64,000 bases of DNA, from assembly GCA_951406725.2 (NCBI GenBank), contig OX597819.1:14198001-14262000 (forward strand). The letters are read 5' to 3'. Position 1 is the stretch's first letter, and every line of letters begins with the position of its first letter. The DNA comes from Octopus vulgaris (taxonomy: Eukaryota). Both the position numbers and the translations under genes were made by a program. This document shows, piece after piece, positions 4,599 through 53,657 of this stretch. The notes beneath the pieces are model-generated. The model did no database searches. It had not been told where the DNA came from and saw nothing but the letters and a program-made list of their open reading frames with translations.

Positions 4599-4634
4599 CA
4601 GTTGAAAAAGTCTCAATGACCGAAACCGGTACTG
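4599..4634 (+). ncRNA. Type I hammerhead-like motif, U3-A8 variant
   Basis: CAG-TTGAAAA-A-GTC tcaat GAC-C-GAAAC-CG-GTA-CTG: helix I CAG/CTG, palindromic helix III ACCGGT, GUA triplet. Confidence 0.65.
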
Positions 4635-5014
4635 AAATGTTTTTTTATAAAATTATTTTAGCATTTTCTACCTTGACTTGTCCGTATATATATTTGAGGA
4701 AAGAAAACTCCGAATTACCCGTCCTTCTTTCTTTGTACCATCTGTCTTGATGTTTTGCGTTCTTGTCCCATTTACACACACACACACACACACACACACA
4801 CACATATATATATATATATATATATATATATACATATATATACACACACACATATACATGCATATATATGTACACACACGCCTACACACACATACATTAA
4901 TTGTTAGTACTTAGAGTGTGCAAATTAGCAGCACCAGTCCTTCTCTGTCGCTGCTGGAATTGTTGAGTAAATAAACAGATTAGTCGCTCCTTTCTCTAGG
5001 ATTGGTCAAATCGT

Positions 5015-5325
5015 GAAGGCGCATGGCTCAGTGGTTAGGGCGTCGGGCTCACCCGCGTGGCGTTGTGAGTTCGATTCCTGGACCTGGCTGCATGTTGTTG
5101 CTCATGAGCAAGACACTCCACAGACATGCCTACCGGTCACGTACTTCTCAGGGAGATTCAGCGTGAAATAGAATGCGACAAGCTACAACTCAATTTTGCC
5201 AGCTGAGTGGACTGAAGCAAAGGGAAATGAAGTGTCTTGCTCAAGGACACAACTCGCTACCGGGATTCGAACTCACGAACTTACGATCATGAACCAATTA
5301 CTCTACGCACTAAGCTGCGCACCTT
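5015..5325. mobile_element. Two converging, degenerate tRNA-headed SINE copies (SINE-C related)
   Basis: Plus head GGCGCATGGCTCAGTGG...GAGTTCGATTCC at 5018; minus head with GAGTTCGAATCCC near 5262-5274 and SINE-C body motif CACGCTGAATCTCC. Confidence 0.65.
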
Positions 5326-5345
5326 CCTAGACGAGAAAGTAAACA

Positions 5346-5575
5346 AATACCTATTTCTTTATTACCCACAAGGGGCTAAACATAGAAGGGACAAACAAGG
5401 ACAGACATAGGTATTAAGTCGATTACATCGACCCCAGTGCGTAACTGGTGCTTAATTTATAGACCCCGAAAGGATGAAAGTCAAAGTCGACCTCGGCGGA
5501 ATTTGAACTCACAACGTAACGGCAGACGAAATACCGCAAAGCATTTCGCCCGGCGTGCTAACGTTTCTGCCAGCT
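5346..5575 (-). mobile_element. SINE-B
   Basis: AGCTGGCAGAAACGTTAGCACGCCGGGCG...GAGTTCAAATTCCGCCGAGGTCGAC; multiple copies in window. Confidence 0.85.
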
Positions 5576-6132
5576 GTTAGTGACTCTTAAGTACTCAATA
5601 TGTTGTTGTTTAGGGCCATTTCGGCGTCTACCTAGGAGCCCTAGGGTAAGTACGTTATGTGACCATCCCAAGCCAGCCCCCTTTATTTGGCGACTGAGTA
5701 TGGGGGTTATTTGGTATATGCGTATGTGTACACACTTCGTTTTGCGTGGGTGTTAATTCAGGGTGTATATAATAATATTATATACATCCACACACACACA
5801 CACACACACACACACACATACACACACATACACCCACACACACACACTCTTTTACACATACACACACATACACACTCACATAAGCACACTCTCTCTCTCT
5901 CACACACAGACACACTCTCTCTCTCTCTCTCACACACACACACACACACACACACTCTCTCTCTCTCTCTCTCTCTCTCTCTCTCTCTCAGGCACACGTA
6001 CAATTACAAAAGAGCTGCTAATGGTTTCATGCTGTCCTTGCATTTTCTAGTTGTGTATATAAGAACGATGTCTCTCTCTGGATGGGGAAATTTTCTGCAG
6101 ATCCTAACTATATTGATACTGTAAACTATAAA

Positions 6133-49237: not shown

Positions 49238-51177
49238 TTTGTGTTGTAAAATTTGTTATATATAGATATCATGTTATAGATATAAAAAAAAAGATAAATA
49301 AATCGCGCGCGTACACCACACACACACACACACACACACACACACACACATATTACCTTGTATGTCTCTTTTTCTTTTCCTAAATGAGAGTAGGCTATTA
49401 TTTGAAGGTTTCTATTTCTAGGAAGTCGAGCATCCGTTTAGAAGCTTTCTCGCTATTATCGATATTATTAAGTATTCATAAAGACAGCGAGTTGGCAAAA
49501 TCGCCAGAATGTCGTAAAAATGCCACGTGACCCTTCATAAGGTCCTTCACGATCTGAATTCAAATCTCAGCCTTTTCAACAGGATGTAGAGTGGTTTTGG
49601 CTTCTACACTGTTCTGTGTAATAGATGGGTGCTCAATATTTATTGAGGTTTCCTCGCCAGAACTTGATCGTTACAACGTGAGATTACTTCATCAGGAATT
49701 TGCAATTGTGACATACATTGTATGTATATTTGGGATCTTTTCTGTTTGCTTGCCAACGGCTGCCAGCGTCAATTTTCTATCCGAATTGATTTCATATTCA
49801 GTGTAATGATACACTTTTATAGGCTAACTAATAACGTGAAGTAATTTTCGCTCTAAATTAATGAATGAAGAGTTATTAGTAATTAAAGTTTGAAAATTTT
49901 GGTGATTTTAGCCAATTGTAAGTCACAAGCACATTCATGTCTGTTTCGATAGTAACAAGTTGAAATATTAGAACTCTTTTCCCCGTTGCCATAGTAATAG
50001 TCTTTGGAAAGTCTGCGAGGAAGCACGTGTTGACAGCAGTCTTATTTACTCGTTTCTTTTTGTCATTGTGCATTGAGGTGGTTGTGAGGTGTGCTAAAAA
50101 TAACGGCTAAATAAGACTTTTTTGATAAATCTTTTAAATTAAAGTTTCTTTGCCGACATCTCGCTCAGAGATTTAAAACTGTTTCCTCTTTTAAATTAAC
50201 ATAAACATTTATTTACATGAAAGAAAATTTACCAGAGACATAACACCTGTTGTTTACAAATATTGATGACACGCGCTATTTTCAGGATGTTGACGACAAA
50301 ATGTGCAGTCGCACACAAAATGATAGCTTCCAAATCCTGTTTCCTGACGAAGTGAAAATGATCAAACTTTAAACTTCTATAACGTTTCAAAAGTATTTTT
50401 CTGAAAAAAATTAAATAACTCCAACAATTCAATTCTACTGCAGCGTGCTGTCAATAGACAAATACTATTGGATGCTATGGTTTGTCTCTGTGGATGCTAA
50501 GGTTTGTATTAATAGACAAATACTGCATTAATTTGTTTGTGGGCTATAATACTGCTGTGATAGCCTTGATAGGAGAGAGAGAGAGAGAGAGAGAGAGAGA
50601 GAGAGAGAGAGAGAGAGAGAAAGAAAGAGAGTTAGATATGAAAGTTCTATGAAATAGTCTGCTGTGATGTTTGTGCATACAAACATCAGAAATTATGGCA
50701 ATGCTAACTAATAAATAAATAGATAAATAAAGCAACTGAGTAAACAAACAAACAAGCAAGCAAATAAATAAAAAAATAAATAAATAAGCAGGTGATAATA
50801 GTCGTAGTGGAGTAAAACCGGAAGTTGAAATGTATTTCAGCTTAACCTTAGTTCCGGTTCTATTTGTTATATCAAGCTAATGTGTATGACGTCATTTTCT
50901 TAATATGAGGTCAGAAAAAAGAAACGAAATAAAGAAAAAAAGAAAACTAACCCAAAACTCTAATAAAAGAAGGGAAAAAAAGAACAAGAAGCGGTGACGG
51001 TAGTGGGAGGAGGAACAAAAGTACATAAATCCTCCTCCTACTACTTCTCGAGTATTTTGGCTGGTTTCCTAAAATGTTTCAATTCTTTTATATTTATACA
51101 AAAAAACAAAAAACAAAAACCAAAATGACTCTTCCAAGATTTCGTTCAAGCTGTACACGCAGCCGAGTTGAATTCCT

Positions 51178-51947
51178 TATATATATATATATATATATAT
51201 ATATATATATATATATATATATATATATATATATATATATATATATATATATATATATATATATATATATATATATATATATATATATATATATATATAT
51301 ATATCTGTGTGTGTATATATATATATATTGTGTGTGTGTGTATATGTATTATATATATATATATATATATATATATATATATATATATATATATATATAT
51401 ATATATATATATACATATAAACATACATATATACATATATATATATGTATATATATGTATGCGTATACATATATACTTACATATATACATATATATATAT
51501 GTATATATATATATGTATGCGTATACATATATACTTACATATATACATATATATATATATGTATATATATATGCGTATACATATATACATACACGTATAT
51601 ATAGATATGCATATTTATATATATATATATATATATATATATATATATATATATATATATATATAGATAGATAGATAGATAGATAGATAGATAGATAGAT
51701 AGATAGATAGATAGATAGATAGATAGATAGATAGATAGATAGATAGATAGATAGATAGATAGATAGATAGATAGATAGATAGATAGATAGATAGATAGAT
51801 AGATAGATAGATAGATAGATAGAGAGATATAGATAGATAGATAGATAGATAGATAGATAGATAGATAGATAGATAGATAGATAGATAGATAGATAGATAG
51901 ATAGATAGATAGATAGATAGATAGATAGATAGATAGATAGATAGATA
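51178..51947. repeat. (TA)n then (GATA)n
   Basis: Direct reading. Confidence 0.95.
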
Positions 51948-53162
51948 TGCTGCGACTGTCTAAGCGATTGTTTGTTACGTGATGTTCGCCTGATTGTTTA
52001 CTGTGAAGCTTAACAAGTTTCTGGAGAAGAGACAAGAGTAAAAGAGAAGAATGAAAGGTAAATAGTTGGCGTATTTCAGGTGTGAAGCATCACCGCAATA
52101 ATGCGTGTGTGTGTGTGTGTGTGTGTGTGTGGCGACTCATCATGGTGACGTTGAGAAACAAAGGAGGCCAAGGTATTATGGGACATTGCGAATAACTTCC
52201 GTTAAGTTCGTATGTACGTATTTTTGTGTAGATGTATTGTATATATGCACACACACACAAATACATTAGTGTAAATGTAGCTCTATCTAACTATATATAT
52301 ATATGTGTGTGTGTGTGTGTATGCGTGTATATATATATATATATATATATATATATATATATATATATATATAATTTCAACAATATTAAGGAATGGCTCT
52401 GATAGGCCATTCGACTCACTAGAAAGAGCAGTTAAACTCAAACCGCTAAATAGTAGTAATTCAGAAATCAAAGGAAAATTAAAAACATTTACCCTAATCA
52501 TCCTTGGACAATGCCTTGTTTCGACGTACTTTTTGGCAAACCAGCCTAATTAAATTAAACTTAATCAAGTCAATCTACCACTGGCTCGTTTCATCGGCAA
52601 GGAGGCCAGGAGGAATAAATATTCCACGAGGCAGCCGCACCGATGCCTCGGGAATATATACTCTAAATTTTCAAAATCTACCGTAATCGCGCCAACTTAT
52701 CAGCAGCAAATATAAACTGCTGATTTAATTTCAGAATTAGTAAAAAAAAATCATTAATTAATCAATATAAGGGTAGCAAAAAATTCAATAGAAATTTTTT
52801 TCGCCACCAACGATACTCACACACACACATACGGACACGTACATACTCACTTACACGCTTATGGCGGGAGATGAGTGTCTTTTCAGCGAAAACTATCACA
52901 AACTTTATCTGCAGCAGCAGTAGTAGTAGTAGTATTAGTAGTAGTAGTAGTAGTAGTAGTAGTAGTATGCTATGCTCGAAACTCTGTACTCATTAATCTC
53001 TTTCGTGTATATATGTGCATGTCTGTGTGTGTATGTGTGTTTGCGCGCGTGCACGTATGTGCACATGTTTAATATATATATATATATATGTGTGTGTGTG
53101 TGTGTGTGTGTGTGTGTGTGTGTGTGTGTGTGTGCGCGCGTGTGTGTGTGTGTGTATGCATA

Positions 53163-53492
53163 TGAAGGCACAAGACGCTCTGAAACGTGTACAACGAAAA
53201 ATTACAAAGCACGAGCACATGGAACATGAACGATTCTTTTGAAGAACGAAAGACACCAATGGAAAACAAAACAAACAACGTCAAGAAGGACCCTTCATCA
53301 GTCGTTGGCTGTTTTTCTAGTCTCGTATTTCGAGCATTTAACAACAATATATGCTTTCGATAAAACAGTTGCTCCCGCAAAGCAAATTAAATAAAATTTG
53401 GGATTTTGCGGAGGGTCACAATAGGTGACACAAACAGGTCAGTGAACACAAACAGGAAGGGCTGCTAAGCATAAACGAGGTTGTGGTAGCAA
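53163..53492 (-). mobile_element. Copy of the 29650-29985 cassette
   Basis: Long shared blocks such as AAAGCAAATTAAATAAAATTTGGGATTTTGCGGAGGGTCA. Confidence 0.8.
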
Positions 53493-53590
53493 TATATATA
53501 TATATATATATATATATATATATATATATATATATATATATATATATATATATATATTGATTAAACCTTGCCAAGTTAAATATTTAAACC

Positions 53591-53657
53591 AAACCTGATG
53601 AATGACTGTAACTCGAAAATTTAAAGAAATTAACAGCCATGAAACGATCGTAGTGTT
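53591..53657 (+). ncRNA. Type I hammerhead in a (TA)n-flanked cassette
   Basis: AC-CTGATGA-ATGACTGT...ACAGCCAT-GAAAC-GATC-GTA-GT; helix III palindrome ACGATCGT. Confidence 0.7.

Follow-up and report, generated by a model that had tools for sequence, protein, structure and literature searches.

Minimal hammerhead ribozymes of type I are carried by metazoan Penelope-like elements (PLEs), for which a short helix I, an extra base between A9 and position 10.1, a G10.1-C11.1 pair, a palindromic helix III and a covariant U3-A8 pair in the core have been described, with many divergent families per genome and mostly solitary, 5′-truncated copies (PMC4209133). These features, with the extra base and the G10.1-C11.1 pair clear in part of the copies and irregular in others, were found for a set of hammerhead motifs in a 64,000 nt stretch of the Octopus vulgaris genome (assembly GCA_951406725.2, contig OX597819.1, positions 14,198,001 to 14,262,000 of the forward strand; hereafter the window, in which the sites are named by coordinate). 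One family in this set, represented at 22892 and 37838, differs in carrying U at core position 6 (U6), whereas all 56 motifs in the published alignment (Fig. S3 of PMC4209133) read A6, as the descriptor used there required. Further differences from the published set are the helix II regions of 40–85 nt in several window families, and a genome-wide load of roughly 1.5–2.5 × 10^5 motifs compared with about 2,000–9,000 minimal motifs in each published genome.

The Neptune/Nematis-type endonuclease-bearing (EN+) PLEs have a single frame with reverse transcriptase (RT), a DKG motif, a CX2-5CxxC linker plus, at the C-terminus, a GIY-YIG domain with CCHH, and they show partial tandems as pseudo-long terminal repeats (pseudo-LTRs), inverted truncated neighbours and targeting of (TA)n (PMC8557442). 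The octopus elements resemble them in all of these respects, although the window holds non-coding stubs only and placement in this group is by motifs; the 37838 family is laid out like an Acropora Neptune example (PMC4209133, Fig. S3). Non-LTR retrozymes, too, occur in animal genomes as short units that are non-coding and bear type I hammerheads (PMC7229834; 10.64898/2026.07.22.740005), whereas the copies in the window are solitary, minimal and 5′-truncated, and one family continues into a coding element. Core position 6 is naturally altered in the A6C hammerhead of phage Bcep176, which has low activity in Mg2+ and good activity in Mn2+ (PMC3088659, PMC7151607); that hammerhead is a single phage copy with C, whereas here U is carried on a minimal, dimer-type scaffold by animal retroelement copies that number in the tens of thousands.

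The U6 family is a young and very abundant PLE family, which carries U for the near-invariant A at core position 6 across many subfamilies. Core positions are given in hammerhead numbering. A 31 nt pattern of the family with U6 had 14,238 exact matches in the genome, against 496 with A, C or G in its place, which were mostly C among the 100 listed of these 496. When the 5′ box was left free, U6 was found in 44/47 copies, and in 19/22 copies after exclusion of loci picked by open reading frame (ORF). Apart from N7 and H17, which vary, and the outermost 5′ base of helix I, all core and helix positions were kept in at least 44 of 47–48 copies; G5, G8, G12, A9, A13, A14, the A15.1-U16.1 pair and both helices were near-fixed across subfamilies, with tails that are 77–86% alike between N7 groups. 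An alternative register, with the next 5′-box-like word read as U3 to G8, was rejected, as it breaks helices I and II and puts a freely varying base on U4. An earlier note on this stretch, made from the sequence alone, had overlooked U6 since it used a loose pattern. The sister family, which has a 3 nt loop II, carries A6 (11/13 copies; 3,433 exact genome matches), and the G6 of its window copy at 30335 is a change at the level of that copy. A second recurrent variant in the sister family is a subfamily with C at core position 4 (L037, L096, L098, L119; 5/13 copies).

A tree was built from 75 copies after masking of positions 6 and 7; 10/75 rows were taken from loci selected because they lacked U6. 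In this tree U6 ran through a ladder of subfamilies, and copies with C6 or G6 were scattered single rows. Two A6 copies fell in one older branch, and the 37838 copy was placed at a zero-length tip. The 37838 stretch was present in sequencing runs of four organisms (19 runs, none of them listed as RNA), and in contigs from 4/4 runs the hammerhead was covered at 3–10 times the depth of its flanks. These contigs show no other letter at U6, but none at the variable N7 either, and the letter table is thus blind at U6; U6 is shown directly by just one contig, from organism B, with 0 other letters over 37706–37959. A metagenome scan for the U6 motif found 0.

The stubs of the 22892/37838 family are the 3′ ends of Penelope-like elements with RT and GIY-YIG. 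Among 40 copies the 3′ end was fixed and the 5′ ends were variable, and long copies continue into a GIY-YIG frame. The first (TA)3+ run started 85–115 nt behind helix III in 54/80 copies, versus 4.4% of random points, while 11/80 copies were without (TA)3+ within 170 nt behind helix III. A genome search with the GIY-YIG protein gave 18,637 first-look candidates, of which 150 were scored, including several open frames of >1,000 aa, and in 24/30 loci picked by the endonuclease a hammerhead of the family was located at most 1.5 kb downstream on the same strand, with U6 in 24/24. Locus L166 shows the order RT, linker, GIY-YIG, untranslated region (UTR) and hammerhead, followed by a second partial copy, and in locus L201 a 1106 aa open frame is bracketed by two hammerhead-bearing ends. 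The L201 protein matched the profiles RVT_1 (2e-08) and GIY-YIG (0.0068, below cut-off), and contains DKG, YIDD, CX2-5CxxC, GIY-YIG-type and CCHH motifs, its CX2-5CxxC linker and the CCHH in the endonuclease being those by which the Neptune/Nematis group is recognised (PMC8557442). A homologue search with the element protein found 1,563 relatives, the best of them 53–57% identical, with no clade-named references among them. Partial tandems or pseudo-LTRs, inverted truncated neighbours and fixed 3′ ends with 5′ truncation were all observed in the genome, and the Penelope-like origin proposed in the earlier note is borne out for this family by its direct linkage to RT and GIY-YIG. The 3′ end at 37706–37972 is 98% identical to that of the L201 element over 313 columns (partly (TA)n), and the stretch 22802–23001 is 80% identical to an element 3′ end in L201. 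At L201:604-934 the open frame continues upstream across the (TA)n run in which the preceding element ends, and conserved-looking residues precede the first in-frame ATG; splicing or an unusual start is possible.

Reading of the sites and family alignments placed hammerhead-shaped sequence at 13/13 of the coordinates for which the earlier note had claimed about 12 motifs and a half, and the helix I pairs quoted there were correct on re-reading. The features, with strand in brackets, are as follows.

4599..4634 (+): minimal type I hammerhead with U3-A8 core, palindromic helix III and 3 bp helix I
6436..6460, end approximate (+): hammerhead 3′ half, its 5′ half lost against a (TA)n run
22802..23001, boundaries approximate (-): 5′-truncated 3′ end belonging to the older A7 subfamily within the U6 Penelope-like family
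22892..22927 (-): minimal hammerhead, U6 core variant
23698..23732, site 23701 (+): hammerhead that breaks off after G12-A13 beside (TA)n, with 5′ box and helix II present
24107..24143, site 24106 (-): degenerate copy of a U3-A8 minimal hammerhead family (8-row alignment)
29579..29617, site 29581 (-): minimal hammerhead with U3-A8 core, 7 bp helix I and 2 bp helix II
30242..30459 (+): 3′ end of the sister family (3 nt loop II), with (TA)n on both sides
30334..30368, site 30335 (+): minimal hammerhead, G6 in this copy
37099..37211 (+): hammerhead in which the 5′ box is canonical, helix II is long and AT-rich, helix III is predicted at 3 bp and H17 is U
37706..37972 (+): 5′-truncated 3′ end (part of a pseudo-LTR) from a young Penelope-like element, with a (TA)n run on each side
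37838..37875 (+): minimal hammerhead, U6 variant, with U6 at 37846 and a putative cut after 37870
39152..39257 (-): hammerhead with canonical core, long branched helix II and palindromic helix III
41114..41201, site 41118 (-): hammerhead with canonical core and long AT-rich helix II (two diverged relatives)
41380..41467 (-): hammerhead with canonical core, 6 bp helix I, long helix II and C at H17, in a ~300 bp cassette
53591..53657 (+): hammerhead with canonical core

By core, the 13 sites comprise seven that are canonical or U3-A8 (4599, 29581, 37099, 39152, 41118, 41380 and 53591), two U6, one G6, one degenerate copy and two halves. The A6-type core of PLE minimal hammerheads, or its U3-A8 covariant, was found at these seven sites and in the degenerate copy at 24106, while 22892, 37838 and 30335 lack A6 and were filed as variants. 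Helix III is an exact or near palindrome at all complete sites, least so at 37099. The extra base after A9 and the G10.1-C11.1 pair are clear in 22892, 23701, 30335, 37838 and the 24106 family, whereas this region is irregular in the long-helix copies 39152, 41118, 41380 and 53591. A (TA)4+ run within 200 nt on the 3′ side was present at 9/13 sites, versus 23% of random window points, in agreement with the siting at (TA)n, and about ten distinct ribozyme-bearing families are represented in the window, in support of the several distinct families inferred in the earlier note.

A descriptor for type I hammerheads was run on both strands of the window. With a strict core (C3-G8 or U3-A8, A6, and a helix I of at least 4 Watson-Crick pairs) it gave five matches, all at listed sites (29581, 37099, 39152, 41118 and 41380), and the relaxed descriptor additionally recovered 4599, 22892, 30335 and 37838, as well as three chance-looking matches outside the listed sites (37161, 42078 and 42900). 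The four descriptor settings gave 5, 6, 9 and 6 matches, against shuffle means of 0.20, 0.34, 1.09 and 0.32, and the observed counts were reached by 0/1987 dinucleotide shuffles, with microsatellites left in place, in any of the four settings; the shuffled control that the earlier note had proposed thus showed an excess. In a register test that avoids circularity, cores were picked without a helix I requirement and the first three helix I pairs were then checked: the exact hammerhead register was paired in 6/9 window cores versus 0–3/9 at shifted registers, and in 36/54 cores from 40 sampled genome stretches versus 0–12/54. The descriptor and the register test together confirmed that the elements are arranged in type I order and that helix I closes directly against the core. 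The Rfam search, also proposed in the earlier note, gave no hammerhead at the gathering score in the window or in 10 loci, nothing in a scan of 37760–37960 at E ≤ 10, and only microsatellite-driven microRNA (miRNA) matches among the best 150 of 430 rows of a whole-window E-value scan. The Rfam models are insensitive here, since a canonical-looking hammerhead array elsewhere in the genome (L086) likewise falls below the gathering score. Simple repeats make up ~15% of the window and are the source of hundreds of false miRNA matches in Rfam. Minimum-energy folding formed helices I and II but often not the open core, and carries no information for ribozymes that act as dimers. Chance matches in AT-rich, repeat-rich DNA could account for the three extra relaxed matches, in a setting that expects ~1, and for the empty Rfam result. 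The shuffles, the exact helix I register and families numbering thousands leave this explanation practically no room and have already refuted it for the whole set, and the window motifs are real as a set.

Several window copies are poorer than their families. Sites 24106 and 53591, both missed by the descriptor, are damaged copies of families that are well formed in the alignments; the single helix I mismatch of the window copy at 53591 is paired in three relatives, and one relative of 24106 (L005) has C3-G8 in place of U3-A8. At sites 23701 and 6436 only half of the motif is left, ending against (TA)n; family copies of 23701 are complete, unlike the window copy, and 6436 is a relative of the 41380 family with full-length relatives in L029 and L166. 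U3-A8 cores with a helix III of the 4599 type had 11,698 genome matches, versus 181 for the reversed pattern. The 39152 hammerhead is located in a ~415 bp cassette (about 39014–39428), and genome searches gave 1,834 candidates for its family, 3,179 for the 41380 family, with inverted partial copies beside 10 scored matches, and 1,743 first-look candidates for the 37099 family, with 40 scored in each case. Nine of 19 relatives of 39152 have C for G12 and common flanks beyond the element end (L002, L004, L006, L009, L011, L012, L013, L016 and L019); these C12 copies apparently represent one dead insertion amplified inside another repeat.

The density of motifs was sampled in 40 evenly spaced 10 kb stretches (400 kb) of the 2.8 Gb genome, which contained 38 strict matches, or 6.1 per 64 kb compared with 6 in the window, with 7/38 stemming from one array. 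The genome at large thus has the same density, and the window is no special dense system, contrary to the impression given by the earlier note. The sample extrapolates to about 2.5 × 10^5 motifs genome-wide. Direct pattern counts, restricted to helix II regions of 8–35 nt and run with reversed-pattern controls, gave 128,216 matches versus 37,708 for the A6 core and 78,221 versus 31,063 for the U6 core; summed with one U3-A8 type, the excess over the controls is about 1.5 × 10^5, although the control is imperfect in a repeat-rich genome. The resulting load of about 50–90 per Mb may be among the densest hammerhead loads described, the axolotl genome being much larger. Published counts include over 6,000 hammerheads in a coral and up to 120,000 in axolotl (PMC7229834), and 235 Rfam hammerheads in the giant squid (PMC6962438). 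A search of the literature on hammerheads with octopus or cephalopods found no study of these motifs, and the main text of PMC13282606 mentions neither ribozyme nor hammerhead.

Elsewhere in the genome, a tandem array with a period of 353–359 bp (L086:2300-4550; C1, about 20.00 Mb) has a canonical-looking type I hammerhead in each unit, with a 6 bp helix I and a 4 bp helix II, and two more copies on the other strand; from this organisation it is likely a true non-LTR retrozyme. A related U3-A8 form was found in L102, L104 and L105. A second young PLE family has many open frames of 781 aa and, within a 3′ UTR that is long and repetitive, a U3-A8 hammerhead (L027, L032, L051-L054), and this family is absent from the window. 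Most of the 30 loci obtained in a GIY-YIG family search belong to a different PLE family, with a hammerhead that the window lacks. Within the window, no host protein domain was found in the 150 longest of 191 complex frames, which yielded fragments of LINE and mariner elements and, in a satellite, a single match below threshold; the window may possibly lie inside an intron of a large gene. At 58258–59046 (+) a non-LTR element is represented by its C-terminal part, which has a CCHC finger, a restriction-like endonuclease motif and a weak zf-RVT match. Further element fragments, at 54529–55276 (+), 3048–3569 (+), 36456–36968 (-), 59940–60296 (-), 25236–25635 (-) and 12882–13199 (-), comprise pieces of a gag-like frame that has a zinc knuckle, of LINE RT and of mariner transposases, the last two labels being assigned partly by eye. 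Two tandem arrays were also present, one of 95 bp units at 14096–14639 (5.7 copies, 98% matches) and one of 191 bp units with SINE-like sequence at 31972–32466 (2.6 copies).

Taken as a whole, the window motifs are very probably minimal type I hammerheads in the 3′ ends (pseudo-LTRs) of endonuclease-bearing PLEs, with the solitary stubs as inert passengers. About ten families would have left short, 5′-truncated 3′ stubs genome-wide, mostly at (TA)n. An element with one RT and GIY-YIG frame would be transcribed from a tandem arrangement, its endonuclease would nick AT-rich or (TA)n DNA, and reverse transcription would begin about 100 nt 3′ of the hammerhead, at a fixed point, and would usually end early, so that in most insertions only the tail with the hammerhead would remain. 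Two copies in a tandem transcript could pair via the palindromic helix III and may cut the RNA, and the hammerhead would serve this tandem parent transcript, while solitary stubs such as those in the window are most likely inert. Partners in such a dimer need matching helices I and III. A heterodimer of the same-strand neighbours 41380 and 41118 was considered and rejected; their helix III strands could pair, and their helix I strands mismatch on inspection. These steps are consistent with a PLE endonuclease that cuts AT-rich DNA and reverse transcription that starts at fixed internal sites, as described together with a hammerhead that is protein-assisted and dispensable for insertion in vitro (PMC11167929), and with minimal hammerheads that are inactive as monomers and weak as dimers in vitro (PMC4209133). 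For the other families a PLE origin is suggested by the 39152, 41380 and 37099 cassettes, which have at least 1,700–3,200 candidates per family and the inverted partial neighbours typical of PLE insertions, a hallmark of these elements (PMC8557442). Several observations weigh against this account: the window contains no PLE coding sequence; a tblastn screen of the examined loci (flanks mostly 1.5 kb) linked no other window family to an ORF, and with only one of about ten families so linked, some may be non-autonomous; and the 37099 family forms a ~645 bp tandem array (C14:68530659-68534276, at least 5 copies among the scored matches), which could be retrozyme-like.

The cassettes might instead be non-LTR retrozymes, that is, non-autonomous units which are transcribed, self-cleaving, circularised and re-inserted by a PLE enzyme. 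The earlier note had raised this idea, and it draws on their short, non-coding nature, on the real arrays elsewhere in the genome (L086 and the 37099 family on C14) and on a 2026 preprint which derives animal retrozymes from PLE ends (10.64898/2026.07.22.740005). We consider it improbable for the window copies: a tandem copy in the window was found for 0/13 sites, the 22892/37838 family grades by 5′ truncation into the GIY-YIG frame, and the motifs are of the minimal PLE type and not of the canonical retrozyme type, two types that are separated in PMC7229834. More doubtful still is the suggestion, likewise made in the earlier note, that the motifs are active in host transcripts and cut the pre-mRNAs that span them. 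The genome-wide density of about one motif per 10 kb implies that many are intronic, 37099 and the copies with six-base palindromes could form a short helix III alone, and one PLE hammerhead is activated by its protein (PMC11167929). Against host cutting, the motifs are solitary and of a type inactive as monomers and weak as dimers in vitro (PMC4209133), the only same-family pair in the window (22892 and 37838) is on opposite strands, no same-strand partner of the same family is near any of the 13 sites, the 150 longest frames contain no host domain or exon, and a lizard PLE yielded no reads ending at the cut site (PMC11167929). For the U6 motif itself, a weakened but still selected ribozyme or RNA fold is the rather probable reading and ranks ahead of a dead one, given the near-fixation of the other core positions and helices while N7 and H17 vary. 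More specifically, and with somewhat less than even confidence, U6 could be a new natural core variant under selection in a recently mobile PLE lineage that ranks among the most successful in this genome, serving in assisted cutting or as a non-cutting signal for reverse transcription; by analogy with A6C, assisted cutting may need the RT-endonuclease of the element or a metal other than Mg2+. The motif could also be catalytically dead, with the family spreading without a working ribozyme and the core kept as a protein-binding fold or because its history is short. Activity is reduced by changes at position 6 (PMC3088659, section 8), at a cost of up to about four orders of magnitude for A6C in low Mg2+ (PMC7151607), hammerhead mutants left the insertion of a lizard PLE unimpaired in vitro (PMC11167929), and Naiad PLEs thrive without canonical hammerheads (PMC8557442). 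The near-fixed core in subfamilies with diverged tails and the greater contig depth on the hammerhead in all four runs speak against a dead motif, which we regard as a serious but rather less probable explanation. Selection is also favoured by pairwise identity among 22 copies, which was 0.92 for the ribozyme but 0.81 and 0.85 for the flanks, although this excess is partly built in, as copies were found with a helix II anchor. The U6 group needs 12 changes on the tree, which does not show a single origin of U6. No A6U hammerhead was found in a literature search made without the survey of PLE hammerhead variants by Lunse et al. 2016, the largest of its kind, and several supplements; the papers listed concerned twister ribozymes and an aptamer selection, and the novelty of U6 is not secure while that survey lies outside the literature compared.

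The density of motifs in the window and the kind of element that carries them are ordinary in this genome or already known, and what appears new is the family-wide U6 core and the sheer genome-wide load, with tens of thousands of such motifs missed by standard descriptors and Rfam. The function of PLE hammerheads is debated, as they are near-universal, yet weak in vitro and dispensable in one insertion assay (PMC11167929), and are possibly parasites of the elements (PMC8557442). The U6 family, with its long open frames and near-identical copies, and its A6 sister together offer a direct natural test of whether PLE hammerheads must cut.

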